Under the pieces are notes generated by a model. It saw only the letters and a list, made by a program, of their open reading frames with translations. It did not search any database and was not told the origin of the DNA. Shown here piece by piece: positions 11,050-64,000 of a DNA stretch of 64,000 bases. Position numbers and translations under genes: made by a program. The DNA lies in the NCBI GenBank assembly GCA_963747695.1, contig CAVVFV010000008.1:139592-203591 (forward strand). The letters run 5' to 3'. This DNA is from Candidatus Falkowbacteria bacterium (GTDB lineage: Bacteria > Patescibacteriota > Patescibacteriia > Patescibacteriales > WJLG01). How positions within the stretch are numbered: the stretch's first letter is position 1; each line of letters begins with the position of its first letter.

Positions 11050-11127
11050 TGTTTGGCAGAATAATGGTGATTAGGTACTTAGTCGATTAGGTGCTTAGAG
11101 TATCTTTGATTCTGTTTATGCAAATTT

Positions 11128-11184
11128 GTCCCCTCCTTGGGAGGGGTGCCGATCCCGCCAAGGCGGGAGAGGCGGGGTGGGTCT
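11128..11184. repeat. GC-rich double mini-hairpin element
   Basis: cccctcc-ttg-ggagggg (11130..11146) and tcccgcc-aa-ggcggga (11153..11168), followed by gaggcggggtgggt. A closely similar string occurs inside copA at 53746..53789. Confidence 0.7.
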
Positions 11185-22815: not shown

Positions 22816-22827
22816 TAAATTATCATT

Positions 22828-26741: not shown

Positions 26742-26755
26742 AGTATTTAGCTTAG

Positions 26756-26771
26756 TGGCGTTATAACGCCA
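26756..26771. promoter_or_regulatory. 16-bp perfect palindrome in divergent promoter region (candidate operator)
   Basis: tggcgtta|taacgcca lies between the recombinase start (26741, minus) and the HTH gene start (26817, plus). Confidence 0.4.
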
Positions 26772-26816
26772 TATAGAATAATAATAACACAATTGATAGG
26801 ATATACAATAACAACT

Positions 26817-27020
26817 ATGGATATTTCAAAAAAATTCGGCAAAGCAGTTAGAGCGGCACGCCTTGAAAAAGGAATGTCTCAGGGAGATTTGGCGTTAAAA
26901 TTAAAGGTTGACGCTTCTTATATTAGTAAGATAGAGCGAGGCATACAAAATATGTCACTTGAAGGTGTGGAAAAAATAGCCAAAGCATTGAGTGTGCCAA
27001 TAGTAGAATTAATTAAATGA
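26817..27020 (+). CDS. XRE-family HTH protein resembling R-M controller (C) proteins
   Basis: MDISKKFGKAVRAARLEKGMSQGDLALKLKVDASYISKIERGIQNMSLEGVEKIAKALSVPIVELIK. Its stop overlaps the next start (ATGA). The ORF track starts 8 codons earlier. Confidence 0.8.
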   Translation: MDISKKFGKAVRAARLEKGMSQGDLALKLKVDASYISKIERGIQNMSLEGVEKIAKALSVPIVELIK

Positions 27021-28417: not shown

Positions 28418-28430
28418 CAAGTCTAGAAGT

Positions 28431-29001
28431 CATCTCCAAAAAATCTTCGGCTCGAACTTGTTTTTGATAAATCAAAAACTTAAATTTGTGCCCATCAAAC
28501 CTTACGCTTCGCTTCGCGAAGCGTTAAAAATTTTGCCTGAAAAAGGGCTTAGTATTTTCTGTGCTCATCTCTATGACCTCGCTCGAGGATATTTTTTAGA
28601 GAATTCCTGACCCAAAATATAGCCGTCTAACTGCCGCCAGCTAGCGGCCATTTTCCCGTTTTACGCTCAAAGCAAGGGGGCCAACTAGGTGAACAGCTAT
28701 ATGAACAGCTGTATGAACGACTAGTTGAACCCGGGTTCAACTAGCAGACACCGATTTAAGCAGTTATCCTAGCCAAATTCTATTTTCAAAAATGAGTGAC
28801 TATTACTCCGACAACGGAATCAACTGAACGACAAATATATATTATTACTACACTAAGACATTACGACTAAACTACAAATTATAATTACTACTTAAACCAA
28901 TTATACTAAATACAAATATTAATTACAGATATTATTTAATTTCAGATACTACTTTCCAACTACTGGCCAAAACCAAGAAAAAAATGGGGAATGAGGGGAA
29001 A
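28431..29001. repeat. 571-bp inverted-repeat copy (X' + tg core + B') containing an attP-type junction
   Basis: 28431..28561 is the exact reverse complement of 25278..25408. 28564..29001 is the reverse complement of 37089..37526: the outer ~300 bp are identical and the inner ~140 bp carry scattered mismatches and one small indel. Confidence 0.85.
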
Positions 29002-29175
29002 GCCCATCGCCCCGACATAGGTCGGGGCGAGATTGATGGCCCAGGAAACGAAGAGTGTAATAGATACAATCGAACCAGCGACTATTTAAGTAAAAGGCTC
29101 CGACAAAGGGGGTGCCTTTTACTTTGACATTGAAAGAAAATTGTGGTAATATGCGACAATAATAAAGAATAATGT

Positions 29176-30000
29176 ATGGCAAAAAAGATTTTAACATTCT
29201 ATGTTCACCAAATCGTTGTTGAGGGCTTGAATAGTTTTGATTGTTCAACCTTTGGTGCTATAAAAGATTTTGACACCGAAACCCAAGAGATGAAGGAAAT
29301 TGAGGATGGGAAAGACGAAATATTATCCGTAAAAAAGGTGTCAAAAAGTATTCATGAAGACAGATTTGTCGCCATATATTTTAATATTGGTGATAAATAT
29401 CCGTATTCATCAAAGGTTGTTAATGAAAGTCTGTGTGAACAGGATAATCCAAGAGCGCCTGATTTAATCGAATTAGACGAGCAACTTTTTGCATTAGTTG
29501 ATGTTGAAAAGCAACGCCTATGGATATCTAACCAACAAAAAAAGGGTGATATAAGAATTTGGCTAGAAAATAAATTAGGCAAAAAGGTGACTGTAAAATC
29601 TATAATAAAGGACGGAGAATTTATTAACAAGATTAAATCAGTTCGAGAAATTTCCTTTTCTGTTACGCCAAATATATTTAATTCCCCTGGTCAAAATACT
29701 CTTTCAAGTCGCTTGATTGATGATATGTATGGATTTGGTGCCAAAGAAGCAAGATTGTGTTTAAAATATGAAAATTCAAAAATTAGTGATAAAATAAAAC
29801 AGAAGATAAGTGATCTGTTAAAGCGACAAGTTGATTTTAAAGATATTACGGTTATTGGGTATAGTGATGAAAATCTTGAAAGCACGTTTAATATGAATGA
29901 AATAACCAGTAAGATTTTAATTGATTTGCCGGTAGATGAAAAGACAAAGTTGCTAGATTCTGCTGAGGTTTTTGCGAGTTTAATTAGCAAGATTAAATAA
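29176..30000 (+). CDS. hypothetical soluble protein (274 aa), island cargo
   Basis: Clean ORF, Lys/Asp/Glu-rich, no TM and no motif recognised. Followed after 6 nt by a 4-TM protein gene. Confidence 0.6.
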   Translation: MAKKILTFYVHQIVVEGLNSFDCSTFGAIKDFDTETQEMKEIEDGKDEILSVKKVSKSIHEDRFVAIYFNIGDKYPYSSKVVNESLCEQDNPRAPDLIELDEQLFALVDVEKQRLWISNQQKKGDIRIWLENKLGKKVTVKSIIKDGEFINKIKSVREISFSVTPNIFNSPGQNTLSSRLIDDMYGFGAKEARLCLKYENSKISDKIKQKISDLLKRQVDFKDITVIGYSDENLESTFNMNEITSKILIDLPVDEKTKLLDSAEVFASLISKIK

Positions 30001-30006
30001 ACGAGT

Positions 30007-30474
30007 ATGAAGAAAAAAATAATATTTTCATCATTAATTTTCGTTTTAATAATTTTGGTGCAAAGAATTTGTTTATCAGGCGAAAAATTTAATGCATCCG
30101 TCGTTGGCGATGTTATAACGTTTCTCTCGATTACTTTTGGTTTTTATATTACTAGCTTGGCGATCTTTATGACGTCTCAATTTGTTGCCGATTTATACAA
30201 GGTGGTCGATAAGGATGACAATTCCTCAACGCTTTTGCATAAGCTCATGAGTAATTATAAATTTGGGTTAATGCTAACATTAATTTCCTTGATGTATTTC
30301 ATTGCTATTGATTTTTTTGTGAAGCCAGATGTTAATAGTGAAATATCTTTCATGTCTATTCCTGCATATCCAATTCTCGCCTTTTTGATTCTTAATTTTG
30401 CCTTTTGTTTTATTATGTTGGGTGACTTGGTAAATGTTATAATACAGGAGGGTAAAATTCGAACAAAGCAGTAA
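30007..30474 (+). CDS. hypothetical 4-TM membrane protein (155 aa), island cargo
   Basis: Four hydrophobic helices (IIFSSLIFVLIILV, ITFLSITFGFYITSLAIFM, FGLMLTLISLMYFIAIDFF, AYPILAFLILNFAFCFIML). Confidence 0.6.
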   Translation: MKKKIIFSSLIFVLIILVQRICLSGEKFNASVVGDVITFLSITFGFYITSLAIFMTSQFVADLYKVVDKDDNSSTLLHKLMSNYKFGLMLTLISLMYFIAIDFFVKPDVNSEISFMSIPAYPILAFLILNFAFCFIMLGDLVNVIIQEGKIRTKQ

Positions 30475-30502
30475 TGCTGATATTGCATTTATTACGGTTA
30501 TG

Positions 30503-30536
30503 AAAACTCCTTTTTTAAAGAAAGGAGTTTTTTTTA
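30503..30536 (+). terminator. rho-independent terminator
   Basis: aaaactccttt-ttttaaag-aaaggagtttttttt. It separates the 2-gene cassette from the mod operon. Confidence 0.65.
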
Positions 30537-30628
30537 ATCAATAATATTTATAAATAATTATGTAATTTTCGCTTGATTTTTGGTTTTAAAAGTGGTAAAC
30601 TTGAAATTCAATTATAAATATAAAAAAT

Positions 30629-32512
30629 ATGAACTCACTAATTTACGAATTGCCAAAAATAGTTGACGAGGGCAAGAAGGAAGTGGAAAAAATTCTAGAA
30701 AGATTGTCGGGCTCAAATAAATTGGCACTCCAAACCAATGAAATAGTTTTGCCGGCCAAGGATAGCGATAATCTTTGGAGCGGGCAAATGCCGAAGGTCA
30801 ACGAGGGGGAATGGATGAATCGTTTGGTCTATGGCGATAATTTGCTGGTGATGCAGGCGCTTTTGGCTGGCGATTTAGAATCTGGTTTGCCTTCAATGCG
30901 CGGAAAAATTGATTTAATTTATATTGATCCGCCGTTTGACAGTAAGGCGGATTACCGGACTAAGGTGACATTGCCCGGGGCGGACTTGGAACAGAAACCG
31001 ACAGTGATTGAACAATTCGCTTATGCCGATACCTGGAAAGACGGTACCGTTTCTTATCTTAAGATGCTTTATCCGCGGTTGGCTTTAATGAAAGAACTTT
31101 TGTCTGACAAGGGTTCAATTTATGTCCATATTGATTGGCATGTCGGGCATTATGTCAAAATTTTATTGGATGATATTTTTGGGAAAAACAACCTCGTTAA
31201 TGAAATAATATGGAAATATCATGTTGGAACAACTCCACTGAAAGGACTAGGGAAAAAGCATGACAATATTTTGTTTTATAAAAAATCGAATGAATTTAAG
31301 TTTAATTTATGGAGGGAGGCAATACCGGAAGAAAGAATAAAGGATTATAAATACACCGATGAAAATGGAAGAAAGTATAGATTGGGTGGAAATAATGACA
31401 ATACCGTATACTATCTCGACAATGGTAAGGCGGCCACTGACGTATGGACGGATATAAATATTATTAATAAATCGGCAAAGGAAAGGCTTGATTATGGTAC
31501 GCAGAAGCCTCAAAAATTAATCGAAAGAATAATTGAGCAATCGTCTGATAAGAATGATATAGTTGTAGATTTATTCGCTGGTTCTGGCACGACAGCGGCG
31601 GCTGCGGAAAAATTAGGAAGAAGATGGATTGTATCAGATATTGGCAAGCCAGCAAGCTTGGTAATGCGCAAACGCTTAATTGATCAAAATTCAAAACCAT
31701 TTTTATATCAATCTATCGGTGATTATCAAAAAGAGGCCTTGTCTTCTTCTAAACTTTACCGCCGCGTTGGTGATTTAGCGCACGTCGTCCTGCAGCTTTT
31801 TGGCGCTATTCCTTTCCCTGACGATCAAAATCCAAATCGCAATCTCGGCTACATTAAAGAAAGTCGGACCTTGGTAATGGTAGATTCGCCGAATAAGCTG
31901 ACCGGCTTGGCCACGCTTAAAAAAGCACAAGAATATAAAAATTCTTTTCTTGGCGGCTGGAACAAGGTAGTCGTCTTGGGTTGGAATTTTACTTATGATA
32001 TTACCGAGGCTATTCAATTAACTGGCGATGATAAATTGGATGTTTTAGTCATTCCGCCAGACTTGTTGGATAAATTAAAAACTAAAGCGAGCTATCAGGA
32101 TTTGATTAGCAGTGGAAAGATTAGATTTTCTTCCTTGCAATATTTATCTGTTAAGCCAATAACAGTTGAACCGGCTGGCGAACAGGAAAAATTAGTGATT
32201 GAGTTGGATAATTATGTATTGCTTTCCCCGGACAATATCCCTTTGGACGATAAAGACAAAGAGAAGTTAAAAGAAATAATCGCTAAGGATTCACTGGCTT
32301 TAATTGAATATTGGAGCGTTGATCCCGATTATGACGGCATTACTTTTCGGAGTAAGTGGCAGGATTATCGCGAGAACGAAGCCAATGACGGCGATCCATA
32401 TCATGTTGTCACTAAAACGCAATTAACCGTGCCAAAAACGACCAACCGAAAAGTTTGCGTTAAAGCGGTTGATGTCTTTGGCTTTGAAAGCATTGTTATC
32501 GAAAAACTATGA
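30629..32512 (+). CDS. mod: Type III R-M DNA methyltransferase (Mod), beta-class N6/N4 amino-MTase
   Basis: 627 aa. Motif [11 protein letters not shown] precedes motif [21 protein letters not shown], with a central variable region. Located upstream of a Res-type helicase-nuclease. Confidence 0.8.
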
Positions 32513-33000
32513 ACGAAAAAGAAAGAGAAGAATTGTTCGAAAAAGTTAAGAACGAAGCTGAAGTATTTTATAAAAAACTTGAGCCGATTTCTTGTCCGTA
32601 TTTAAGAAAAAAGATTAATTTCAATGCTAAGGGGCTAGATCATATTAAAATGAAAGCCTGGAATAAAACTCGACCGACTTCAGATCAATATTTAAGGTTG
32701 AAATTTTTAAAATTAGTTCCGGCAGTGCTGGCGGCGGCCGGAACCTTGCAAGAGCTTCATGAAAAAAATAATATGGAGAGATTAAAGCTTACCGGCAAGT
32801 GGCAATTTAAAATGGTGCCGGTAAAATATTACGGTTTTGTCGCCATTGTTAATGATGTAAAAATTAAAGTTATCATAAAAGAGATAGAAGCTGTGCCGCC
32901 ATATTTTTGGAGTATAATTCCGTTCTGGAAAACGAAAAACAATGAAATAACCGGGGAAATAAAAAAAGTCTTCCATGAGGGAGACCTTGAGAATGACTAG
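32509..33000 (+). CDS. hypothetical 163-aa protein inserted between mod and res
   Basis: Its start overlaps the mod stop (ATGA). No motif recognised. Confidence 0.55.
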
Positions 33001-33114
33001 AAAACTTTTTTTAGCCTGATACTTGTCTGCGGTTTTATGTATTTAACCGCGGGAGAACTAGGTCCTCACAAATATCATTGTTATTATTATAACACATTTT
33101 TTTTAAAAATCAAT

Positions 33115-36033
33115 ATGCCATCAGCAATTAGCATCGGAACAAGAGATATTCCCTTAAAATTAGCCAATTCCATTACACAGAAAGTTAATGATTCTTGGGT
33201 TAGCGGTGAAATGCTGTCTAAGGTTTCTTTGGTTACTCAAGATCTTCTGAAATACTGGTTTAAAGAGCCGCACACTGAAACGCGATATGTTAATTTTCAT
33301 GAAGGCCAAAGGCAGGCGATTTTGAATGCTATTTATTTGCATGAAGTTTTAGGTGTTAAGAAAGTAAAAGATGTTTACGAAAATATAAATTTTGAGTTAT
33401 TGCCGGAAATTGATATCGCGGAATTAGCCAAAGATAAATACAGCATTCCCAAGTATGCCATTAAGATGGCGACTGGCACCGGTAAAACTTGGGTGATGCA
33501 TGCTTTGGTTATTTGGCAATATTTGAATGCAAAATATGAAATAGAAAAATCTGGCAAATTTACAAAGAATTTTTGTTTAGTCGCGCCAGGAATTATTGTT
33601 TACGAGCGCCTACTGGATGCTTATCTGGGAAAAGAAAACGAAGCGCAAGAAAGACAATTTGAACAATCCGACTTTTTTAAATTTAAAGATTTGTTTATCC
33701 CGCCGCAATACCGCGACGAAGTTTTTGGTTTTATTCAAAACAGTGTAGCGAAAAAACAAGAAATTGGAACCAAGGTGACTGGTGACGGTTTAATTGCTAT
33801 TGCCAATTGGCATTTGTTTATGGGCAAAGAAGAATCAGAAGAAGATAATGATTCGCCTTTGGATAATTCTGATTCGATTGTGAAAGATTTGCTGCCGGTA
33901 AGACCTGGCGTTTCCGGGGGCAACACTTTGGATTCTTTGGACGCTAATTATTTAAGTGGCCGCGAAGTTGACTATTTGGCGGAATTGCCGGATTTAATGG
34001 TGATGAACGATGAGGCGCACCATATCCATGAAAATAAAGTTTACGGCGAAATCAAAGAAGTTGAATGGCAAAAAAGTTTGAATAAAATCGCTGAAGGTAA
34101 AGGCGATAAATTTATCCAAGTTGATTTTTCGGCCACACCTTATGATGTTACAGGTAGTGGACAAAAGCGCCTCAAACATTATTTTCCACATATCATTGTT
34201 GATTTTGATTTGAAAACAGCGATTAGGCGGGGTTTGGTTAAAACAATTGCAATTGATAAACGCAAAGAATTTACTGATCTGGCGCTTGACTATAATGCGG
34301 TAAGGGAGGGGAATAAAGTTATTGGACTGTCGGATGGCCAAAAATTAATGATCAGAGCCGGCTTGAACAAGTTAAAAATTCTTGAAAATAGTTTTATCGA
34401 ATTTACCAAAGATAAGGATGGCGTTTCCAATAAGCATCCCAAGATGCTTATTATGTGCGAGGACAAAAGCGTCTCGCCGTTGGTTGAACAATTTATTAAA
34501 GATGAAGGTTTTTCTGATGATGACGTGCTTCGTGTAGACACCGGTAAGAAAGGTGAAGTTCCGGAAAGCGAATGGTTAACATTGAAGCAAAAACTTTTCA
34601 ATATTGATAAGCATAAAAGTCCAAAAGTTATTGTTTCAGTTTTAATGTTGCGGGAAGGTTTTGATGTTAGCAATATTTGCGTTATTGTGCCGTTGCGTTC
34701 TACGACCGCGCCGATTTTACTGGAACAGACAATTGGCCGCGGCCTTCGTTTGATGTGGCGCGAACCGGAATATGCGGAAATTAAGCAGGATAATATTCAT
34801 CGGTTGCTGGTGGAAAAACGCGAACCAAATAATTATTTAGATTTATTAACCATTATTGAGCATCCGGCCTTTGTTCAATTCTATGATGATTTATTGGCCG
34901 AAGGCTTAATTGGAGAAATTGAAAATGAGTTAGAAGGCAAGGATGTTTTGGGGGATATTTTAAAAGTAGGGTTAAAAGCGAATTACAAAGATTACGATTT
35001 ATTTTGGCCACTAATAATTAAAGAATCCGAAGAAGAATTGGTAAACGGCGAAGTTGGGATAGAAAAATTGGAACCATTTACGATTTATCCATTGGAAGAT
35101 TTGAAAAAGTTTTTTCAAAAAGAAGGAGAATTTTTTGTTTCCGAAGAGCTAACCGTTAAAACGAGATTTGGTGAATACAACGTTGATGCTAATTTATTTC
35201 AATCACAAAGCTACAATGAATATTTGGAGAAGATTTTAAATGTTGTTGTTAATCGGATGGCCAAAGTTGGTGTCCGTAAAACAAAAACTTTTCCAGTGAT
35301 GCAAATTAATAATTTGGAGGTGGTAAAGGTTATTGATAAATATATAAGAACCAAATTGTTTAAAGTGTTTTTTGATCCGTTTGTTGATAATAATTGGAAG
35401 GTACTGTTGCTTAAAAATGGTGTTGTCACTCAACACATCGTTATGGAGATTGCCAAGGTAATTATTGAGATGCAAAAGAATGTTGAAGTGAGCGAAGCTA
35501 AGATTGAAAAAAGATATTTTTCCGAGGTGTCGGAATTGAGAGTTAGAGAAAAATATTCTTTGGAAATTGCAAAAACTATTTATGAGCGTTTGCCGTATCC
35601 CTCAAATAAGGGCGGATTTGAAAAGGCATTGCTGGAATATGCTGATTCCGATGGCAAGGTTGAGGCGATTATGAAAGTAAACGAGTATTATCATAATTTT
35701 GCCAATATCACTTATATCAGAACCGACGGCTTCTTGTCGCTTTATTATCCGGATTTCATAGTGAAAACGGCGGATAAAATTTATTTGATTGAAACGAAAT
35801 CGGATAAAGATTTGAACGATCCAAATGTTAAACAAAAACAATTGGCGACACTTGATTGGATTAAAAGAATTAATCAATTAAGGCTCGAAGATCGGATGGA
35901 TAGGGAGTGGGAATATATATTACTTGGCGAAACGCATTTTTATGGCCTAAAAGATAACAATGCTTCAATTGACGAAATTTGCCGACTGGCAAAGGTAAAC
36001 GAGGCCCAAGCTGCAGGCAAACTTTTTGTTTAA
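33115..36033 (+). CDS. res: Type III restriction enzyme Res subunit (SF2 helicase plus C-terminal PD-(D/E)xK nuclease)
   Basis: Helicase motif I MATGTGKTW and motif II MNDEAHHI, then ..QTIGRGLR. C-terminal nuclease motif YYPDFIVKTADKIYLIETKSDKD. The start is ambiguous (33037 or 33115). Confidence 0.8.
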   Translation: MPSAISIGTRDIPLKLANSITQKVNDSWVSGEMLSKVSLVTQDLLKYWFKEPHTETRYVNFHEGQRQAILNAIYLHEVLGVKKVKDVYENINFELLPEIDIAELAKDKYSIPKYAIKMATGTGKTWVMHALVIWQYLNAKYEIEKSGKFTKNFCLVAPGIIVYERLLDAYLGKENEAQERQFEQSDFFKFKDLFIPPQYRDEVFGFIQNSVAKKQEIGTKVTGDGLIAIANWHLFMGKEESEEDNDSPLDNSDSIVKDLLPVRPGVSGGNTLDSLDANYLSGREVDYLAELPDLMVMNDEAHHIHENKVYGEIKEVEWQKSLNKIAEGKGDKFIQVDFSATPYDVTGSGQKRLKHYFPHIIVDFDLKTAIRRGLVKTIAIDKRKEFTDLALDYNAVREGNKVIGLSDGQKLMIRAGLNKLKILENSFIEFTKDKDGVSNKHPKMLIMCEDKSVSPLVEQFIKDEGFSDDDVLRVDTGKKGEVPESEWLTLKQKLFNIDKHKSPKVIVSVLMLREGFDVSNICVIVPLRSTTAPILLEQTIGRGLRLMWREPEYAEIKQDNIHRLLVEKREPNNYLDLLTIIEHPAFVQFYDDLLAEGLIGEIENELEGKDVLGDILKVGLKANYKDYDLFWPLIIKESEEELVNGEVGIEKLEPFTIYPLEDLKKFFQKEGEFFVSEELTVKTRFGEYNVDANLFQSQSYNEYLEKILNVVVNRMAKVGVRKTKTFPVMQINNLEVVKVIDKYIRTKLFKVFFDPFVDNNWKVLLLKNGVVTQHIVMEIAKVIIEMQKNVEVSEAKIEKRYFSEVSELRVREKYSLEIAKTIYERLPYPSNKGGFEKALLEYADSDGKVEAIMKVNEYYHNFANITYIRTDGFLSLYYPDFIVKTADKIYLIETKSDKDLNDPNVKQKQLATLDWIKRINQLRLEDRMDREWEYILLGETHFYGLKDNNASIDEICRLAKVNEAQAAGKLFV

Positions 36034-36096
36034 CGACTAATGGCTCATATCCCTAATTACGGGAGATAAAATGTCACGGGTTTTAGTAACCAATAT

Positions 36097-36891
36097 TTGA
36101 ATTTTAAAATTATGAAATTCATAGAAGAGATTTCCCCCGAAGTTTATAGAATAAAGAGATTACAAAATTTATTATCTAGAAGTTTAGACAATGATGCTGA
36201 TTTAATAGTCAGCGCTATATTATCAGAAATCAGAAAAATTTTAGAGGACAACAAAGGAGAGAGCTGTAAAAAGTATAAATATTTATCATTGTTCTGCGAC
36301 TGGGTGCTTCATAACAAGTTGGACCTACCTAAAAATGACGCACGTGAAAATATAATTAAAAAAGTTCACAATATACTTTTGCGGCATAACAGCATACAAA
36401 GGATGATTAAGCCTATAGAAGTGGAACTTTTCTATAATTTACGGAGAGATTTAAGAATTTTTCTAAAGAATCACAACCTATCAAGGAATTTAGTAAGAAC
36501 AAATGCGCGCTGGAAAATGTTTCTTGATGGATTAATTCTTGTAATCAGCTTTTCTCCATTGATTATTAACGAGGGCAATAAGAAAAAATTAAAAAAAATA
36601 CATGTTTTCAAGTATATCAAGGGGGACAAACAAACGCTAACAGTTAAGGCTATGACTTTGATAATACGACCCCCACACGTGCATAAGGCTAAGGGTGGAA
36701 AAAAATATTTAAATCCTGCCGAAGCTAATTGGATAATTGACTATAATGAACCCATAGACTTGGGTAAAGAAAAATTTTATCTTCCCACATCTATTCCTTT
36801 AATATACTATAGTCTTGGGAGGGATAATGCAGGATCGGAGTTAAACAAGGGGGTTTTAAATTTTTGGAGTGATTTTAAAATAGACGAATAA
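36097..36891 (+). CDS. hypothetical 264-aa protein, island cargo
   Basis: TTG start in the ORF track, with an in-frame ATG 5 codons in. Basic, Lys/Asn/Leu-rich, no motif. Confidence 0.5.
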   Translation: MNFKIMKFIEEISPEVYRIKRLQNLLSRSLDNDADLIVSAILSEIRKILEDNKGESCKKYKYLSLFCDWVLHNKLDLPKNDARENIIKKVHNILLRHNSIQRMIKPIEVELFYNLRRDLRIFLKNHNLSRNLVRTNARWKMFLDGLILVISFSPLIINEGNKKKLKKIHVFKYIKGDKQTLTVKAMTLIIRPPHVHKAKGGKKYLNPAEANWIIDYNEPIDLGKEKFYLPTSIPLIYYSLGRDNAGSELNKGVLNFWSDFKIDE

Positions 36892-37088
36892 TATAAAATT
36901 ATGGAAACAATTGGGAATAGGATTCGGCAATCGTTTGGTTTTAAGAAGAGGTCGTTTTTGAGGGTCGTGAATTTAGGGTTGAAGAGAAGTTATGAATAAA
37001 GTAGATTGTATCACTCACGTCATCAATCTTTCCATTAGCCCATTAATAGCCTCGTCACCGTTTTGCCCGTCCCGTTTTCACCCCGTCT

Positions 37089-37528
37089 TTTTCCCCTCAT
37101 TCCCCATTTTTTTCTTGGTTTTGGCCAGTAGCTGGAAAGTAGTATTTGAAATTGAATAAATCTGTAATTAATATTGGTAGTTAGTATAATTGGTTTAAGT
37201 AGTAATTGTAATTTGTAGTTTAGTCGTAGTGTCTTAGTGTAGTAATAATATATATTTGTCGTTCAGTTGATTCCGTTGTCGGAGTAATAGTCACTCATTT
37301 TTGAAAATAGAATTTGGCTAGGATAACTGCTTAAATCGGTGTCTGCTAGTTGAACCCGGGTTCAACTAGTCGTTCATACAGCTGTTCATATAGCTGTTCA
37401 CCTAGTTGGCCCCCTTGCTTTGAGCGTAAAACGGGAAAATGGCCGCTAGCTGGCGGCAGTTAGACGGCTATATTTTGGGTCAGGAATTCTCTAAAAAATA
37501 TCCTCGAGCGAGGTCATAGAGATGAGCA
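37089..37528. repeat. inverted-repeat arm B (right end of island)
   Basis: Reverse complement of 28562..29001. Ends ..gaggtcatagagatgagca at the B|Y junction. Confidence 0.85.
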
Positions 37529-37792
37529 TGTGAAATAAAATCGGCCTTCTTGGCCAATTTTATTTCACCATTTTGGGAAATGGATGAGAAGTTTATACCC
37601 CGGAGCCCCGCTTGCTTGCAAGCGGAATCAGGCGAAGGGGTAAATCCATGTCCCCGAACATGTGAAATAAAATCGGCCTTCTTGGCCAATTTTATTTCAC
37701 CATTTTGGGAAATGGATGAGAAGTTTATACCCCGGAGCCCCGCTTGCTTGCAAGCGGAATCAGGCGAAGGGGTAAATCCATGTCCCCGAACA
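37529..37792 (+). repeat. 2 x 132-bp perfect tandem repeat, each unit ending in the last 18 nt of tRNA-Gln
   Basis: Units 37529..37660 and 37661..37792 appear identical. Each ends aatccatgtccccgaaca and contains the hairpins gtgaaataaaatcggcc/ggccaattttatttcac and ccgcttgc/gcaagcgg. Confidence 0.9.
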
Positions 37793-37829
37793 TTGGGAAC
37801 AAAATGAATTTGTTCAACGATCTGGTAAA

Positions 37830-46284: not shown

Positions 46285-46452
46285 TTAATGCGTTAAATAA
46301 TTTTGCCACTTTTTTTAAAAAAAGTGGCAAAGATGTTGCTATAATCGCAATAATAAAAATTAATTTATTTGTTAGATAAAAATATTGCGTTTGGCTAAAA
46401 AATATTCAGACTAAGTACCTAATTAACCAATTAACTAATCGACTAATCCACC

Positions 46453-47172
46453 ATGATCGAGTGTAAAAATATTTATAAATCATATGAGAACGGCGGCGTC
46501 GTCACCGAAGTCTTGAAAGATATTTCTTTTAAAGTAAAAGACGGCGAGTTTGTCGCGATCACCGGCCCGTCCGGTTCCGGCAAATCAACGATGATGCACA
46601 TCATTGGCGCCTTGGATACTCCGACCAAAGGACAATATCTTTTGGACGGCATCGATGTTTCCACTTTGTCCGATGATAAGTTGGCGGCCATCAGGAATTC
46701 CAAGATTGGTTTTGTCTTTCAGGCTTTCAATCTTTTGTCGCGCGCCACGGTTTTGCGCAATGTAGCTTTGCCCTTGGTTTATGCCAATATTCCCAAGCCG
46801 AAGCGCGAAGAAATGGCCAAGCGCGCCCTCCTGCAGGCTGGTTTGGATGAATCACGTTTTTATCATTTATCCAATCAATTGTCCGGCGGGCAGATGCAGC
46901 GCGTGGCCATCGCCCGTTCGCTCGTTAATGATCCGTCGATTTTATTGGCTGACGAACCGACCGGTAATCTTGATTCCAAAACCGGCGATATCGTGCTGGC
47001 AACCTTTCAAGAATTAAACAGAAAGGGCCGTACCATAATTTTGATCACCCATGAGCCGTATGTCGCTGAACATGCCGATCGGATCATTATGGTTAAAGAT
47101 GGAAAAATTGTGAGCGACGGCGCGAATCACCAGAAGAGAGTGCTAACTAAGATTACCGATGATGAAACTTAA
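46453..47172 (+). CDS. ABC transporter ATP-binding protein (MacB/LolD-like)
   Basis: Walker [10 protein letters not shown], signature [13 protein letters not shown] and Walker [12 protein letters not shown]. Confidence 0.85.
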
Positions 47173-48517: not shown

Positions 48518-48566
48518 CGATAAAATAGCATTTGTTAATTTCGAAAATTATTTTTTACTAATTTAA

Positions 48567-48652
48567 ATTGTTATATTGTTATATTGCTATATTGTCACGC
48601 GACGATTCTAAATTTTTTAGCAATATAACAATATATCAATATAACAATATAG
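48567..48652. repeat. caatata/tattg-family intergenic palindrome, copy 2
   Basis: Arms are attgttatattgttatattgctatattgtcacgc and tagcaatataacaatatatcaatataacaatatag. Ends 4 nt before ATG 48657. Confidence 0.75.
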
Positions 48653-48656
48653 TATT

Positions 48657-49154
48657 ATGAAGAAGAACATCATCATTTTGATTATCGTGGTCATCGTCGT
48701 GGCGGCAGCCGGATTTTATGGCGGTATGCTTTACGGAAAACAGACTGCCGCAAAAACGGCGGCGGCTGGCGCGGCTAATCGAGCCGGTTTTACCGGTACG
48801 CGCGGCACGACCGCCCGCACGGGTGCTGCCGGAGCGGGGATTGCCAATGGCCAGATACTAGCCAAGACTGACAACAGTCTGACTATCAAATTGGCCGCCG
48901 GCGGATCAGAGATTGTTTTCCTGGCGCCCAGTTCCCAAATTATGCAATCTTCCACGACTACGATCGGTAATCTGAACGTCGGCCAAAACGTGATGGTCAG
49001 CGGCACGAGCAATTCCGACGGCAGTATTACGGCGAGAACCGTACAAGTAGGTGACTTCCGTTTTGGCGGTAACCGGCCGGCTACTTCCACTCAAGGCCAG
49101 GCTCCGGCGGGCCAAATCCCGGGCAGCGCGGCTGCTTCGGCTCAAGGTCAATAA
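48657..49154 (+). CDS. single-TM exported protein, Ala/Gly-rich
   Basis: 165 aa with an N-terminal TM. LNVGQNVMVSGTSNSDGSITARTVQV resembles DUF5666-type beta domains, a weak match. Confidence 0.5.
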   Translation: MKKNIIILIIVVIVVAAAGFYGGMLYGKQTAAKTAAAGAANRAGFTGTRGTTARTGAAGAGIANGQILAKTDNSLTIKLAAGGSEIVFLAPSSQIMQSSTTTIGNLNVGQNVMVSGTSNSDGSITARTVQVGDFRFGGNRPATSTQGQAPAGQIPGSAAASAQGQ

Positions 49155-51811: not shown

Positions 51812-51835
51812 CTCATTTATTTTTTCTTATATAAG

Positions 51836-51918
51836 CGTTGCTATATTGTTATATTGCTATATTGTTACGCAACGATTTAAAGATTTTTAACAATATAACA
51901 ATATGCCAATATAACAAT
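51836..51918. repeat. caatata/tattg-family intergenic palindrome, copy 3
   Basis: Arms are gttgctatattgttatattgctatattgttacgc and ttaacaatataacaatatgccaatataacaat. Confidence 0.75.
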
Positions 51919-51941
51919 TTTATTAAATAATCAACTAATTT

Positions 51942-53016: not shown

Positions 53017-55365
53017 TTAATCCCGATAAATCCTCAAGCTATTGCCGATGACGGTGATGTCGGAAAGGATCATCGCGAAGGCGGCGACGATCGGATTGGC
53101 GATGCCGAAGATGGCGAGCGGAATGGCGATGACGTTATAGAAGAAAGCCCAAAATAAATTTTGGCGGATGATGCCGAAAGTCTTGCGGGCCAATTTGATC
53201 GCTTCGACGATTTTGATCGGTTCATTTTTCATAATAATGATATTGCCCGCCTCTTTGGCAATATCGGCGCCCGCGCCCATCGCGATGCCCAGATCGGCCT
53301 GCACCAAGGACGGCGCATCGTTGATGCCGTCGCCGGCAAAGACGACGTTTTTACCGGTATCCTGCAGTTCTTTGACTTTCATTGCTTTGTCAGCCGGAAG
53401 AATTTCAGCGAAGAAATTATCGACGGCTAAAAGCGAAGCGGTAAAATGGACGGCGGCTTCCCGGTCGCCGGAAATGATAATCGAACCGATGCCCATCTTT
53501 TTCAGATTCCAGACCGCTTCTTCGGCGGTCTTTTTTAATTCATCGCGTAAAAGGAAGGCGGCGATGACGCGGTCAGCTTTGGCTAAGAATAATAAGCTGC
53601 CGCCTTCATCAGCTTTTTCAGTGCTGATTTTTTCCGCCCAGCCGGCGTCGATTTTATTTTCCGCCAACAATCTCTGGTTGCCGAGAAAGTATTGTTCGCC
53701 CGCATAATTCCCGCCGATTCCCCTTCCAGGGTATTCAGTAATATTCCCCTCCGCGGGAGGGGTGCCGAGCCCGACGAGGCGGGGTGGGTTTCCGAAAGTT
53801 GCCGGCGGAATATCTCCCGGCGGACAGCCTTCGTCGTTCGGCATCTTCTTCAAAGCCGGCAATTCGCCGCCGGCTCGAAGCGGAAAATTATCAGCATCCT
53901 CTTTGTTGATTTGGCAGAATTTTTGATCACCCGTCGCATAAATGGCAATGGCGCGCGAAAGGGGATGAGTCGAGCCCGAAGCCAGATTAGCGGCGATTTT
54001 TAGGACCTCATCTTGATCATAATTTTCGGCCGGAATTATTTCATATAATTTCGGCTCGCCCAAGGTGAGCGTGCCGGTCTTATCAAAAACCACGGTATCT
54101 ATTTTTTGCGCCCTTTCAAAACTTTCGCCATTCTTGATGAGTATTCCTTTCTTGGCGCCGACACTGGTGCCGACCATTACCGCAATCGGCGTGGCTAGAC
54201 CCAAGGCGCAAGGGCAGGCGATGATCAAAACCGTCACGGCATTGATGATGGCAATGGTGAAATCGTGTCGGAATAAATACCAGCCGATAAAAGTTAAAAT
54301 GGCGATACCGATCACTGAAGGCACGAAAATTCCGGAAATCGTGTCGGCTAATTTCTGTACCGGCGCTTTGAACATTTGCGCTTCCTCAACAGTCTTAATA
54401 ATTTTCGCCAAAACCGTATTGGCGCCGGTCTGGGTGATTTTAATTTTCAGTTGTCCATCCTTATTGATCGTGCCGCCAAAGACATTTTCGCCCGGACGTT
54501 TAGCAACCGGCAAGCCTTCGCCAGTCAGCATTGATTCGTCGATATCGGATTGGCCTTCAATAATCGTTCCGTCCAAAGGAATTTTTTCGCCCGGCTTTAC
54601 TAAAGCGATTTCGCCAAGCTGGACATCTTCGACATTTTTTTCAGTCGTCTGTCCAGATTCCCCGACGATCAAGGCTTTTTTAACTCCAAGCTCCATCAGT
54701 TTTTTCATCGCCTCCGAAGCTTTGCCCGAAGTCTTGGCTTCCAGATATTTTCCTAATAAAATTAAAGCGGCGATGGTGGCGGCCGACTCAAAATAGGTCG
54801 GCTTGAGAGCGAAGACCGCCCATAGGCTGTAAAAGAAAGCCGTCAGCGTGCCGAGCGAAATCAGCGAATCCATATTGAATTGCCCGCGAATGATCTGTTT
54901 ACCGGCAGAGCGGTGGAATTGCCAGCCAAAAATAAAAACCACGCAACCGGCTAAAATTATCTGCAGCCAATCCGTATTGGCAATATTTAAATATTTTCCA
55001 GGAATTTCCCACATCCAGATCATCCGGGAAAGCAGGGGAAGCGAAAAGATGATAGCCAAAATCGTTTTATTGCGCCGCCAGTTTCCCCTGGCCATTTCGC
55101 CATGATGCATATGATCGCCCGCCTTGCCCAGCGAAGCTCCGCCGCGGAGCGAAGTTGGGTCTTCAATAACCTTGTAGCCGGTTTTTTTGATCGTCTCTTT
55201 GATTTTTTTCAAATCGATCTTTGCCTCGTCATATTCGACGTAGGCTTTTTTGGTGGCGTAATTGACGTCGGAAGAGATGATCCCCGGCTGTTTTTTCAGT
55301 CCGCGGTCGATGTTCCTCGCGCATGATGCGCAGTCCATCCCGCCGATATTTATAGAAGTTTTCAT
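53017..55365 (-). CDS. copA: copper-translocating P1B-type ATPase
   Basis: 782 aa with N-terminal [19 protein letters not shown] motif [19 protein letters not shown] and GDGINDAP. The nucleotide-binding region carries an atypical insert of about 45 aa. Confidence 0.9.
53746..53789. repeat. GC-rich mini-hairpin element inside copA coding sequence
   Basis: cccctcc-gcg-ggagggg then tgccgagcccgacgaggcggggtgggt. This nearly matches the intergenic string at 11130..11182. On the minus strand it is translated in frame as ..[15 protein letters not shown].. Confidence 0.7.
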
Positions 55366-55422
55366 ATAGTCAGAGAAGAAATAAGAGATTTTTTTATCTC
55401 TTGTTTCTTCGCTCTTAACTCT

Positions 55423-55786
55423 TAATTGATTATGAATTTTCCCCAGACCATTCTCGTCTTTTTTGTCATCCTGAGCGCCGCGCGAAGGATCTATTAACCA
55501 AGAAGCTGGATAAGTAAAATAAAGGATTAGTAAGATTAAGTAGAAAAATATTTCGATAAAAATTTTTGTCGCTGAATTTTAAAGTTCCTACAAAATAGAT
55601 CCTTCGTCAGGGACTCAGGATGACAAAAGGGACTAATTTATTTATTGTATGATGAATTTCCCCCAGACCATTCTCATCCCTTTTGTCATTCCGACTTGTC
55701 CGCCTTGGGCGGAAGCGCCTCGCGAGGAATCCATTTGGTCCAAAAATATTTTACTCAGTGAACCATCCTATCATTAGTTGCGGTTT
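55423..55786. repeat. two decayed copies of the upstream gene's 3' end interleaved with hairpin (MITE-like) inserts
   Basis: gaatttTccccagaccattctc occurs at 55433..55455 and 55653..55676 as well as at the true gene end 55798..55820. Between them lies an insert with inverted termini ttttgtcatcctgag..cgaaggatc / gatccttcg..ctcaggatgacaaaa. Confidence 0.7.
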
Positions 55787-57124
55787 TTACTGAACGACGA
55801 ATTTTCCCCAGACCATTTTCATACCGCAAGAGAATTGGATCGTGCTGACGCCGTCGACCGGCGTGAAATCGATGATCGTGTCGCCGGAAACAAGATTGCG
55901 ATAAATTTGATCCGAACCGTTATAAAGGATGATGGCGTCGGTGCAGCCGGTCGAGCGCGGATGGTGGATGATCCAATGCACCGGAATGCCCTTCTTAATA
56001 TAGATGACGTTGGGCTGATAGCCGGAATAGCCGACAGTCATTTCCACGGTTTGCGCTTCGGTCGCAGCCGGAGTTGGCGTAACTTGAGCTTGATTATTCG
56101 AAGCAGCCGGACTCAATAAGCCAAAACTGCTTAAGGCGCGGCTGAAAGTGAAGAGACCAAGAATAATTACAATTATACCCGAAATTTTTAAAAGTTGCTT
56201 CATCCGGCTGGCGGTAAGCATTGAAACAAAACTGCCGAAGCCGAACAAAAGGGGAATAGTGCCCAGCGCGTAAACGCCCATCGCCAAAGCCCCTTGCAAC
56301 CAATCGCCGGTGGACAAAGCGTAAAGCTGCATCGCCTGTAGCGGTCCGCAGGGCATAAAGCCGGTCAGTAAGCCGATGACGAACGGTCCTTTGGGTTCGC
56401 GGTCTTGGCGGTTCCTGAAAATTATTTTGGCGATGAAATCCGGCGTTTGTAATTTTATCTTGTCGAGCCACTTGATCCCGGTTGCCAATCCTAACCCCAT
56501 CATCACCATAAAAATCGCCGCGATCAACAACAATGTTCCGGAAAAATTCGGGTTGATCCCGAAGAACGACCCAAATCCGCCCAATATACCGCCGATGACA
56601 GTATAGGATATTAATCGTCCTAGATTATATTGAATATGCAGATGATGATTTTTAACTTTTAACTTTTCACTTTTAACTGCCGATGTCGAATAGGCCATCA
56701 CAAATCCGCCGCACATTCCCACGCAATGGAAGCTGGCGAGCAGACCGATGATGAAGATCAAGCCTAGGCCGACATTCTTATCATTCAGATTGGCCATGAT
56801 CGCGAAGCCGCCGAAAGCTTCGATCAGAAAATATCCGGCCGCGAAGATCAGCACAAAAATGCCGGCCCAGAGCCAATTTTTATTAAATCCTTTTTTGCCC
56901 GATTCGATTACGTCCAGCAGTTCCGGCGTGTAACCTAATTCCTTGATTTTGCTGAAAATCTTATCCAGATCGGTTTTAGTTTCATCATACTCAACTCCGG
57001 CCCGTCCCTTTTCATAGATGACGATGACTTTCTTGACGCCGGGCATCGCGCCGACTTCCGCCTCGACCAGCATCTTGCACGAAGCGCAATGCAATCCCGT
57101 TATGTTGAACGTTATCTTTTTCAT
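55787..57124 (-). CDS. HMA domain / TauE-SafE (DsbD_2)-like membrane domain / C-terminal cupredoxin-like domain protein
   Basis: N-terminal ITGLHCASCKMLVE, membrane core with SFHCVGMCGGF, and a C-terminal beta domain ending FSCGMKMVWGKFVVQ. Confidence 0.7.
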   Translation of the reverse strand: MKKITFNITGLHCASCKMLVEAEVGAMPGVKKVIVIYEKGRAGVEYDETKTDLDKIFSKIKELGYTPELLDVIESGKKGFNKNWLWAGIFVLIFAAGYFLIEAFGGFAIMANLNDKNVGLGLIFIIGLLASFHCVGMCGGFVMAYSTSAVKSEKLKVKNHHLHIQYNLGRLISYTVIGGILGGFGSFFGINPNFSGTLLLIAAIFMVMMGLGLATGIKWLDKIKLQTPDFIAKIIFRNRQDREPKGPFVIGLLTGFMPCGPLQAMQLYALSTGDWLQGALAMGVYALGTIPLLFGFGSFVSMLTASRMKQLLKISGIIVIILGLFTFSRALSSFGLLSPAASNNQAQVTPTPAATEAQTVEMTVGYSGYQPNVIYIKKGIPVHWIIHHPRSTGCTDAIILYNGSDQIYRNLVSGDTIIDFTPVDGVSTIQFSCGMKMVWGKFVVQ

Positions 57125-57222
57125 AATCTATTGGTCGTTTAGGTACTTAGTTAATTAGGTACTTAGTGGAACCTTAATTCACGCCCTAAGCGCCTAATCG
57201 ACTAAGTGCCTAATTACCCCTG

Positions 57223-61776: not shown

Positions 61777-61870
61777 TCTGATGCGAATGCCGCGAAAACC
61801 GCGAATAGTGCTAAATAAGGTTCGCGGTTTTCGCGGCATTCGCGCCCATTCGTAGATTTGCATCATATTT
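61777..61870. repeat. long-hairpin intergenic element R2
   Basis: Perfect 23-bp stem gcgaatgccgcgaaaaccgcgaa (61783..61805) / ttcgcggttttcgcggcattcgc (61821..61843), followed by cattcgtagatttgcatcatattt directly abutting ATG 61871. Confidence 0.75.
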
Positions 61871-64000
61871 ATGGAGTTTAACCAAGAACAATTGAATATC
61901 ATCAATAATATTTTTGGTGTTTTTATAATTTCCGCGCCGGTGGGGACAGGAAAGACGACCATTCTGACCGAACGCGTCGCCCGCGCCATCGGATCGGGCA
62001 TCAAGCCGGAAGAAATTTTGTGTTTGACTTTTACCAATCGCGCCGCCGAAGAAATGTCGGAAAGAATTAAAACGAGAATTAATAATAAGAAAATTTACGA
62101 TGAGATCACGGTCAAAACTTTCCACGGCTGGTGCGCTTATTTTATCAAAGCCGAAGCCAAGGCGATCGGCCTGCCCCGCGATTTTGTAATTTTTGAAGAA
62201 GAAGAACAGCGGGAAGTGATGAAGACGATTTTGGAAAAACATCCGGAGATAAGAATTGACGAAGAAAAAGCCAGCCGGGAAATTTCCAATCTGATCGAAA
62301 AAGTCTATGACGCGCGTCTGAACGGGTTGCTAAGAGAGATCGGCGTGACGATCGATGAATTAAAGGCCGATAAGTCAATGGAAGCGATCGGCGCGGAATA
62401 TCATCAGGCGCTGGCCGAACAGAATGCCCTCGATTTCAATGAATTGGTTTTGCTCGCTTTGCGAACTTTATATTTAGATAAAAAAGTCCAAAAAAAATGG
62501 GCGAATAAATATCGCTTTATCCAGTTGGACGAATTCCAGGACACGCATCTGTCGGAATATCTGGTGGTGAAAGAATTAGCTAAAGTTCATCAGAACGTTT
62601 CTTTTATCGGCGATCTGGATCAGACGATCTATACTTGGCGCGGCTCGCAGCCGGTTTTTCTGGCCAAGCTGATCAAAAAACATTTTCCCGCGGTGCAAGA
62701 ATTAAGCCTCACGACTAATTACCGCTTCAATCCGAATATTCTGGCGGCGGTCAAATCTTTCTTATCAAGTTTCGTCAAGCCTTCGACTCAAGAATTAACC
62801 ACGCTGAAAGTTAATGATACGAAAGAAAAAGCAATCAATGTTTTTTCCGCCCATAATTTACGCGAGGAAATTTCCTGGGTGATCGAAGAGATTAAAAATC
62901 TGCGCGCCAAAGAGCCGGAGGCAAAAATCGTGGTGATTTCACGCACTAATAATCTGATCACCAAGACCGCCGATATTTTTGCCGAGCAGGGCGTCGCCCA
63001 TATCACGGTGGATAAATATGAATTTTTCCGCCGCCAAGAAGTCAAAGATGTTTACGCTTATTTGAAAATAATTTTCAATCGCTTCGATCTGGAAGCGGCT
63101 TATCGCTTGGTGAAGCGGCCGCCGCGCAATATCGGCTCGGCGACTTTGAAGACGATCGTCGAAGCGGGCGACAAGATCGGCTTGAAAGTTTCCGACCTTT
63201 TGAATTTTAAGAATTATAAATATCCCGAACCGTTTTTCAATCTGATCAATAAATTCGACCAGGGCCGGCTGATAGTTCTCGATACGGAAACGACCGGCAC
63301 TGATGTTTTGTCCGACGATATCATCCAGATCTTCGCCCAGGAAATAATCAACGGCAAAGTCGAGCGCCGCTTCAGCCGCTATTTGAAAAATGATATTCCG
63401 GTCGGTTTTTCCGAAACGATCCACGGGCTTTCCGACAAGTTCTTAAAAGCTAAAGGCGAAAATCCCAAAAAAGTTTTGCAAGAGCTCGTTGAATTCATCG
63501 GACCGGACGCGGCGATCGGCCACAATGTTAATTTTGATTTGACGATGCTGGCTGAAAACGGCAAGCGGCGCGGAGTTGATTTTGAATTCAAGGAATATTA
63601 TGACACATTGGATCTGGCCAAGCGGGTAGTGGAGTCGCCGAATTATCGCTTGAGCACTTTGGCGGAATTGCTCGGTTTAGCGACAGCCACGCATGACGCG
63701 GAAGATGACGTTTCCGCCACGGTCGGTTTATTGGGCGTTTTAGTGGAACGGCTGCGAAAAGGCGCGCCCGAGCGGGTCAAAGTCTGGCAAGAATATTCGG
63801 TGAAATTCTTGAAACTTTCCGGCGTGATCGATGCCTGGCAAAAAGCGGTTTTGGAAATCCGGCCGCCAGCGGCTTTGGAAAAAGTCTGGGAAGAATCCGG
63901 CCTCAAGGAATTTTACGAGCATGATCCCGAGGCGGTAAAGCGGTTGCAATCGATCGAGGAATTGAAAAAAGTTTTTGCCGAAAAAGATAATCCTGACAAG
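61871..64000 (+). CDS. UvrD/PcrA-type helicase fused to a DEDD (DnaQ-like) 3'-5' exonuclease, 3' end outside window
   Basis: Not in the ORF track because no stop occurs before the window end. MEFNQEQLNIINNIFGVFIISAPVGTGKTT (Walker A) and QLDEFQDT (motif II). The in-frame LIVLDTETTG at 63269..63298 is an Exo I motif. Confidence 0.8.
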   Translation, partial: MEFNQEQLNIINNIFGVFIISAPVGTGKTTILTERVARAIGSGIKPEEILCLTFTNRAAEEMSERIKTRINNKKIYDEITVKTFHGWCAYFIKAEAKAIGLPRDFVIFEEEEQREVMKTILEKHPEIRIDEEKASREISNLIEKVYDARLNGLLREIGVTIDELKADKSMEAIGAEYHQALAEQNALDFNELVLLALRTLYLDKKVQKKWANKYRFIQLDEFQDTHLSEYLVVKELAKVHQNVSFIGDLDQTIYTWRGSQPVFLAKLIKKHFPAVQELSLTTNYRFNPNILAAVKSFLSSFVKPSTQELTTLKVNDTKEKAINVFSAHNLREEISWVIEEIKNLRAKEPEAKIVVISRTNNLITKTADIFAEQGVAHITVDKYEFFRRQEVKDVYAYLKIIFNRFDLEAAYRLVKRPPRNIGSATLKTIVEAGDKIGLKVSDLLNFKNYKYPEPFFNLINKFDQGRLIVLDTETTGTDVLSDDIIQIFAQEIINGKVERRFSRYLKNDIPVGFSETIHGLSDKFLKAKGENPKKVLQELVEFIGPDAAIGHNVNFDLTMLAENGKRRGVDFEFKEYYDTLDLAKRVVESPNYRLSTLAELLGLATATHDAEDDVSATVGLLGVLVERLRKGAPERVKVWQEYSVKFLKLSGVIDAWQKAVLEIRPPAALEKVWEESGLKEFYEHDPEAVKRLQSIEELKKVFAEKDNPDK

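Follow-up and report, generated by a model that had tools for sequence, protein, structure and literature searches.

The gene for the copper pump CopA in a 64,000-nt stretch of a Candidatus Falkowbacteria contig (CAVVFV010000008.1; the whole stretch is called the window below) contains an in-frame insert in its nucleotide-binding domain. This insert is probably composite, consisting of a conserved loop extension followed by a solo copy of a ~48-nt element from a repeat family linked to DUF559 genes. The string in copA is a solo member of this dispersed family, and the element also forms the structured inverted ends of DUF559 cassettes, an association that is statistical in both directions. On our best reading, the copA case resembles a repetitive extragenic palindrome (REP) or Rickettsia palindromic element (RPE) tolerated in a disordered loop. 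The features concerned are as follows.

53017..55365, minus strand: copA, a P1B-type Cu(I) ATPase of 782 aa (open reading frame (ORF), translation, PDB matches, AlphaFold2 (AF2) and Foldseek)
53737..53934, minus strand: a 66-residue segment lying between two motifs of the nucleotide-binding domain, S-T-HPL (H467) and ExxGxG (G547, G549); residues 478-543
53812..53931, minus strand: lineage-specific extension, residues 479-518 (30-orthologue alignment, codon comparison with the orthologous loci L001-L004, predicted local distance difference test (pLDDT) below 50)
53791..53811, minus strand: hypervariable short linker, residues 519-525 (IPPATFG), in which orthologues are not alignable
53743..53790, minus strand: solo element copy, residues 526-541, with the C-rich strand as mRNA sense (element pattern, 278-copy consensus)
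11126..11183, minus strand: intergenic element copy whose two-tier P1 hairpin is intact; the convergent genes on either side end at 11010 (plus) and 11532 (minus)
55117..55158, minus strand: second permissive site in the window CopA, residues 70-83, in the linker from the HMA domain to the first membrane helix (unrelated GC palindrome)

The insert in the nucleotide-binding domain of CopA

The copA reading frame is intact, and its translation contains the motifs of a P1B-type copper ATPase: an N-terminal HMA domain with CxxC (CASC), TGE, a transmembrane CPC, DKTGT, the nucleotide-binding motifs including S-T-HPL, and GDGxNDxP (GDGINDAP). These motifs were invariant across a 57-sequence alignment, with S465, H467, P468, G547 and G549 among the invariant columns. 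A sequence search of the PDB matched the protein to solved structures of CopA and ATP7B (E ~1e-136) and also to HMA4, and the HMMER alignments to these structures each broke at the insert. CopA from A. fulgidus (3J09) has 25 residues where the window CopA has 81 (residues 474-555), rice HMA4 has 22 versus 67, and the spacing from HPLS.. to E.PG.G is ~18-23 residues in typical Patescibacteria CopA versus 70 here. These lengths and the intact motifs bear out the original prediction, made from the window sequence, that copA encodes ~45 extra residues within a 66-residue segment at 53737-53934 and nevertheless retains its frame and catalytic motifs. The 66-residue segment has a GC content of 0.59-0.67, compared with ~0.47 for the gene, and folds better than shuffled sequences (z -3.3, sense strand).

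We compared the segment with an alignment of the 30 best CopA homologues (P0001 onward) and, codon by codon, with the DNA of four orthologous loci (L001-L004). Residues 479-518 were kept in the closest clade (P0001-P0011, P0014 and P0018; 73-85% identity), occurred in a diverged form in P0016 and were missing from P0012, P0013, P0015 and all more distant aligned homologues. A DNA palindrome within the extension (GCCGGC..GCCGGC) was not kept in the orthologues, whereas the peptide was, and no other copy of the proximal DNA was found in the window. Because the peptide is conserved but the DNA hairpin is not, and there is no intergenic copy, the extension is not the repeat; judged from the aligned sequences, it is a clade-specific loop extension under protein-level constraint. 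For this proximal half of the insert, and only there, the result comes close to what the original prediction had named as evidence against a repeat, namely a domain conserved across the clade with no intergenic copies. The extension bears two semi-conserved cysteines, C484 and C514, ~30 residues apart, which in a copper pump may have a metal or redox role.

Residues 526-541 are encoded by the element. The copy in copA reads AACC-CACCCCG-(decayed P1 CCTCGTCGGGCTCGG)-CACCCCTCC-CGC-GGAGGGGA-AT and, like the intergenic copy, fits the exact element pattern given below, with AACC at its 5' end, AT at its 3' end and a degenerate P1. Two exact 14-mers were common to 53745..53789 and 11130..11182 and occurred nowhere else in the window (0.2-0.3 expected by chance, allowing 2 mismatches), and the arrangement CCCCTC-N3-7-GAGGGG occurred twice compared with 0.04 expected, a count that 0/100 shuffles reached. 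The GC-rich string that the original prediction saw in both places is therefore real, although it covers only 16/66 codons, and the proposal that a repeat was inserted and tolerated in a loop of the nucleotide-binding domain stands for residues 526-541 and fails for the whole 45-66 residues. The spacer copy has a well-formed P1 hairpin (GCC-TC-TCCCGCC-TT-GGCGGGA-TC-GGC; minimum free energy -36.9 kcal/mol, z -2.4), and the copA copy folds no better than its shuffles (z of -1.06 and +0.06 for the plus and sense strands). The decayed P1 suggests that the copy in copA is an old insertion that is drifting, with selection only for an open frame. No Rfam family was found over either window copy at gathering thresholds.

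Among close orthologues the distal part of the insert ranges from 0 to ~90 residues, with recurring peptides such as NTPRPAEAAVHPSQEGNF. Element copies occupy this site in L001, L002 and L003, a variant occupies it in L004, and 7/14 of the closest orthologues have no element there. An orthologue alignment, which the original prediction had proposed for delimiting the insert, thus separates a polymorphic distal repeat from ~40 proximal residues that are conserved protein and not repeat. L002, L003 and L004 also carry the element at a second permissive site, the linker that joins the HMA domain to the first membrane helix, where its second hairpin is read in different frames in L002 versus L003 and where, in L002 and L003, it takes the place of a His-rich HMHHGE stretch found in L001 and the window. 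The window CopA is 10 residues longer than L001 in this linker, and these residues are encoded by a GC palindrome, GCTCCGC-G-GCGGAGC, with no other copy in the window. In all copA orthologue copies the C-rich strand is the sense strand. The copies in L001 and L002 are identical at 54/54 nt, compared with 73.6% identity for the genes and 51% for the 150 nt upstream, a pattern suggesting that the copies were acquired independently, underwent gene conversion by other copies or are constrained at the sequence level. L002 contains a second, longer element variant after the first (3553-3740), flanked by a 17-19 nt direct repeat, TTTTGCTAACGGCTCCG, that may be a duplicated target or the outcome of tandem duplication and subsequent conversion.

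Structure prediction, also proposed with the original prediction, placed low-confidence coil at the insert. In an AF2 model of CopA built with 57 sequences (mean pLDDT 77), only residues 70-91 and 481-539 had pLDDT <50, and these two segments are the two sites that accept the element; residues 481-539 were modeled as coil with pLDDT 31-45. The remainder of the model superposed on LpCopA (3RFU, TM 0.76) and ATP7B, with Foldseek matches to 3RFU, 4BBJ and 7SI6. The element in copA is therefore predicted to sit in a surface loop that is disordered and has a nucleotide-binding motif on either side.

The element family and its DUF559 cassettes

On its C-rich strand the element reads AAMC-CACCCCG-(hairpin P1, variable in sequence and length)-CACCCCTC(C)-loop-(G)GAGGGGA-ATT and is ~48 nt long, and the inverted junction of the repeat reads CGGGGTGGTT/AACCACCCCG. 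Membership was defined by AAMC, CACCCCG, hairpin P1, CACCCCTC, a loop of 3-7 nt, GAGGGGA and AT(T), in this order. An exact-pattern scan of one genome per species revealed at least 120 loci, with Bacteroidota, Verrucomicrobiota, Cyanobacteria, Planctomycetota, Firmicutes, Proteobacteria, Nitrospirota, Chloroflexota and Patescibacteria among the matches listed, and the same scan of viral contigs revealed 77 loci. Comparison of 278 distinct copies with their flanks showed that conservation spans positions -4 to +3 and that the sequence beyond is random. The P1 segments (185 distinct) had a mean Watson-Crick stem of 4.7 bp compared with 2.0 bp after shuffling, and a stem of at least 4 bp was present in 75% of them compared with 7% of the shuffled segments. 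Starts of P1 among 260 copies were mainly CGTC (98), CGCC (95) and CGGC (48); for long-P1 copies, 43/59 started with CGTC and 52/59 ended with NCCA. Most copies have stems of 3-5 bp closed by TNC triloops. Such loops on the C-rich strand are GNA on the G-rich strand and are nearer to stable single-stranded DNA triloops than to the UNCG tetraloops of RNA, which is a hint only.

The family is absent from Rfam: an E-value scan of four copy-rich loci returned only chance matches to miRNA-like hairpins. An intrinsic terminator was also considered and rejected, as some lineages have GAGGGGAATTTTT but most copies are without a T run and the flank is random past +3.

Any one frame of the element is open in most copies, and copies often lie in-frame within long ORFs of bacteria and phages. 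A stop codon in a given frame occurs in 12-15% of copies, or 29% for one frame, and phage contigs carry in-frame copies inside ORFs of 2275 aa (on a contig with 34% GC) and 2770 aa (three copies). In a phage protein family of ~700 aa, a single loop holds the element in three members, a degraded version in two and none in one. Phage contigs also showed a modest sense bias of the element relative to genes (62 versus 40). These observations establish the identity and boundaries of the element, its distribution and its in-frame occurrence in many proteins.

We clustered the ORFs of 197 element-anchored loci and found one small protein family directly beside the copies, at 10/197 loci. This family is Pfam DUF559 (PF04480; ~125 aa), with weaker matches to PF18741 and no match to Y1_Tnp. 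For the reverse direction, 80 metagenome loci were fetched by the DUF559 protein alone and scanned with a regular expression that allowed 1 mismatch per box and overlapping matches. An element lay within 200 nt upstream at 64/76 DUF559 loci (~84%; 58 of those in G-rich orientation) and downstream at 63/76 (60 of those in C-rich orientation), with elements on both sides at 51 loci. Element density was 5.3 per kb near the DUF559 gene compared with 0.15 per kb further off. The repeats closely bracket the DUF559 ORF, whose 3' end often enters the downstream repeat (..KNHPAL..).

About a fifth of the cassettes lie in-frame inside other genes: in 17/80 the open frame extends 120 aa or more to each side. 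Their hosts include HsdR, HsdS, N6/N4 methyltransferases, Eco57I/MmeI-like enzymes, Type ISP enzymes and QueA, and cassettes split the Pfam matches to QueA and to the C-terminal domain of Type ISP enzymes. One HsdR insertion site was common to L218, L227, L236 and L241. Pfam revealed no Hint, intein or intron domain in nine host fusions with cassettes; an intein was rejected on this ground and because the insert is too short. Among individual loci, L075 (711-5716), L212, L218, L230, L238 and L263 have DUF559 cassettes and repeats fused in-frame in restriction-modification genes or QueA; at L075, an MmeI/Eco57I-like methyltransferase is broken up by one DUF559 domain together with several repeat doublets, and an adjacent ORF has more doublets.

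The DUF559 profile matched 3HRL, a structural-genomics protein, at 4e-25 and, weakly, the I-Bth0305I domain 3R3P (0.005). Its invariant residues (E71, D73, G74, H77 and D84 in alignment A3) fit the Vsr-like catalytic E/D..H..D pattern, consistent with the classification of DUF559 with Vsr and the EDxHD homing endonucleases (PMC3424549, PMC3239194). The family is very large, with more than 7,900 matches that carry generic names only, and many of the called proteins include repeat-encoded termini. Genes for 'DUF559 domain-containing protein' are enriched among predicted targets of programmed inversion (PMC9881135), which fits the flanking inverted repeats. Neither the repeat nor any link between it and DUF559 was found described in the literature searched, and both the element family and its partnership with DUF559 appear to be undescribed.

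Proposed mobility and alternative explanations

We tentatively propose, as a possibility that falls somewhat short of an even chance, that the element and the DUF559 gene constitute an undescribed mobile class: a nuclease cassette bounded by largely stop-free inverted repeats, residing in-frame in host genes without an intron or intein and leaving solo and doublet derivatives in protein loops across phyla and phages. On our main reading, solo and paired copies are putative non-autonomous derivatives or targets of the cassettes. The nuclease would drive their spread through cleavage at hairpins followed by repair or gene conversion, or through transposition-like insertion, in parallel to REPs and their doublets (REPINs) with REP-associated tyrosine transposases (RAYTs). 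In copA, the element would have landed, or been trimmed, as a multiple of three, and only frame-keeping insertions in permissive loops would survive. Given the stop-free frames of most copies, a length that is a multiple of three and the disordered loop, a Pro/Gly-rich peptide would be translated without breaking the pump. We infer mobilization by DUF559, translation of the insert and neutrality for CopA function.

Several observations weigh against this account. The three conserved boxes are imposed by the search pattern; evidence independent of that pattern is provided by the positions flanking the element, the P1 hairpins and the loci fetched through the protein. Only two element copies are present in the window, no DUF559 gene was found in the window or in the four orthologous loci, and most copies in five copA loci fall within the cop operon. 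Orientation relative to neighboring genes followed no clear rule in genomes, for which ORF calls were crude. The identity between L001 and L002 could reflect selection at the nucleotide level and not recent insertion or gene conversion. No target-site duplication was seen except for the direct repeat at the one L002 variant, none was established, and no pair of empty and filled sites was obtained at nucleotide resolution; mobility is therefore unproven.

The element might instead be a functional cis signal of the cop operon, either an operator for the CsoR repressor, which is encoded two genes upstream of copA, or an RNA structure for pausing or attenuation between the domains of copA. All three L001 copies lie within the cop operon (one inside copA, one ~130 nt before csoR and one 10 nt before the start codon of HMA-DsbD), the copies in copA orthologues fall at two domain boundaries with the C-rich strand always sense, and the L001 and L002 copies are identical despite their diverged flanks. 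C4..G4 inverted repeats also resemble known CsoR operators. We nonetheless consider a cis signal unlikely: hundreds of copies are found in unrelated settings across many phyla and phages, a breadth on which a CsoR operator was rejected, and copies lie outside cop loci in the window (11126..11183), in L003 (an intergenic copy at 4966) and in the related Patescibacteria contig L034. In addition, half of the 14 closest orthologues dispense with the element at the nucleotide-binding site, the window copy in copA has a decayed P1 and an unremarkable fold, and no copy was found in the window upstream of csoR or of the HMA-DsbD gene.

Exaptation of the encoded peptide, in which the Pro/Gly/His-rich loop (HTPS..HPSQEGN in orthologues) would serve as a tether or as a regulatory or metal-binding site, is decidedly unlikely. 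It would account for the recurrence of insertions at the same two sites in several orthologues and for the replacement of the His-rich stretch in L002 and L003. However, the peptide is wholly different between orthologues, with differing frames at the linker and lengths that start from zero at the nucleotide-binding site; the same DNA gives loops of unrelated host proteins elsewhere, and AF2 predicts no structure for it.

The reading of the whole 45-66-residue segment as one inserted mobile repeat is largely refuted and very improbable. The segment as a whole is GC-enriched, folds better than shuffled sequences and is predicted to be disordered, but its match to the spacer copy and the family consensus is limited to 48 nt, and the proximal 40 residues are kept as protein and not as DNA hairpin or as a repeated sequence. 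An assembly or binning artifact, such as a chimeric join through a repeat in this metagenome-assembled source, has a negligible chance of explaining the insert, as the frame runs unbroken into conserved CopA sequence at either end, an identical protein is encoded on a 331-kb contig (P0001), and independent NCBI, JGI and Logan assemblies show element copies at the same site.

Relation to known repeats and other repeats in the window

The composite reading, with a tolerated element in its distal part, places copA beside several known systems. Intragenic REPs and RPEs are a known phenomenon (PMC3733652), and RPEs in particular are in-frame palindromic repeats in the protein genes of Rickettsia (Ogata et al. 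2000, as summarised in PMC3733652 and PMC10969869). Like RPEs, the element is a short palindromic repeat found in-frame in functional genes, presumably translated as surface peptides, also present between genes and patchy among orthologues; this likeness rests on behavior, as an in-frame intragenic palindrome, and not on the sequences of RPE-1 to RPE-8. Classic RPE-1 is longer, at 100-150 bp. RPEs are also confined to Rickettsia, whereas the element is ~48 nt, GC-rich, built of two hairpins with C-rich boxes, present in many phyla and phages and linked to DUF559.

The long-stem copies resemble the CGTC-tagged REPs of Di Nocera et al. (2013; PMC3733652), with P1 of the form CGTC-A...T-G-CCA (tag in 43/59, tail in 52/59), intragenic copies and inverted dimers as a typical arrangement; the P1 stem opens with an A:T pair in 27/43 CGTC-tagged copies. 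Compared with the published definition, and not with consensus sequences, the element differs in adding CACC- before P1 and -CCCTC(C)-loop-(G)GAGGGGAATT after it. Both window copies have CGCC and not CGTC, and short-stem members (3-5 bp with a triloop) fall outside the definition, which calls for an unpaired CGTC (or TGTC/CCTC) tag at the 5' end, a stem of 8-9 bp that begins with A:T pairs, a loop of 4-5 nt and a CCA tail.

With REP/REPIN-RAYT systems (PMC5581495, PMC3479197) the element shares multicopy hairpin repeats, inverted doublets and a single flanked small nuclease gene, with repeats that are presumed non-autonomous. It differs in that the flanked gene encodes DUF559, with a Vsr-like PD-(D/E)XK fold, in place of a Y1 HUH transposase; the GTAG tag is missing, cassettes are often in-frame inside host genes and apparently translated through, and the repeat is conserved across phyla and not species-specific. 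A REP-RAYT system was accordingly rejected, the flanked gene being PF04480 with no match to a Y1 (IS200/IS605-like) transposase. A miniature inverted-repeat transposable element (70-300 bp, with 15-30 bp terminal inverted repeats and a target-site duplication) was rejected because the solo unit of ~48 nt is one arm, lacking terminal inverted repeats of its own, and its flanks are random past -4/+3.

The cassettes share with EDxHD/Vsr-like homing endonucleases (I-Bth0305I; Taylor et al. 2011, PMC3239194) and with inteins a residence inside host genes, preferentially those for DNA metabolism and restriction-modification, including a recurrent HsdR site, and with the former the Vsr fold. Unlike these, the host fusions have no intron, Hint or intein domain by Pfam and no NUMOD DNA-binding region, and the DUF559 gene is bounded by structured inverted repeats with thousands of solo copies, which homing alone does not explain. 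Very short GC-rich mobile palindromes in AT-richer genomes are also known from yeast mitochondria, where GC clusters and 'byp' elements lie inside coding sequence such as var1. These are organellar, and byp elements are skipped by the ribosome and need not keep the frame, whereas the element in copA does.

The implications for CopA are modest: a selfish repeat tolerated in a disordered loop, here in a streamlined Patescibacteria genome, adds a further case to a phenomenon known from Rickettsia. Its wider value lies in a sharply defined cross-phylum element that is the terminal repeat of DUF559 cassettes. If DUF559 mobilizes these repeats, a very large family without an assigned function would gain one, and DUF559 might be the missing mobilizing enzyme for CGTC-type REPs and RPE-like repeats. 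The proposed mobile class would also represent a nuclease gene that lives inside host genes without splicing, and would account for the 'HPS.EGN / SPPLEG..GVV' peptides that recur in metagenomes and inflate or fuse gene calls there. Annotators should note that repeats may be the source of extra domains or loops in restriction-modification enzymes, QueA, phage proteins and transporters.

The window contains further repeats. In the spacer between the HMA-DsbD gene and copA (55366-55839), two partial copies of the last ~11 codons of the upstream gene (~55422-55474 and ~55642-55694; original at 55787-55839) each abut a TGTC/CGTC-tagged, REP-like palindrome (GTCATCCTGAG..CGAAGGATC), which forms an inverted pair at 55456-55495 / 55594-55633. 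These palindromes constitute a second REP-type family with signs of repeat-associated duplication. Two long inverted repeats lie at 28553-28930 / 37160-37537 (378 nt, 98%) and 25273-25408 / 28431-28566 (136 nt, 99%); the shorter one begins within a tRNA (25205-25275), whose 3' fragment recurs at 37643 and 37775, and a 132-nt tandem repeat spans 37524-37787. This arrangement across 25205-37800 suggests that at least one element has integrated at a tRNA gene.

AT-rich repeats with an 8-bp period (TTAGGTAC/TTAGTTAA.. and TTGTTATA/TTGCTATA..) occur in many intergenic regions, often as inverted blocks (11058-11099, 13017-13134, 16617-16808, 17717-17764, 46397-46472, 57118-57218, 22739-22817, 48556-48657 and 51834-51926), and one block lies upstream of cop operon genes. 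Finally, a 53-nt repeat with 96% identity is present at 19808-19860 and 61821-61873 beside GCGAATGCCGCGAAAA-type inverted repeats, with one copy near a tRNA (19934-20006).

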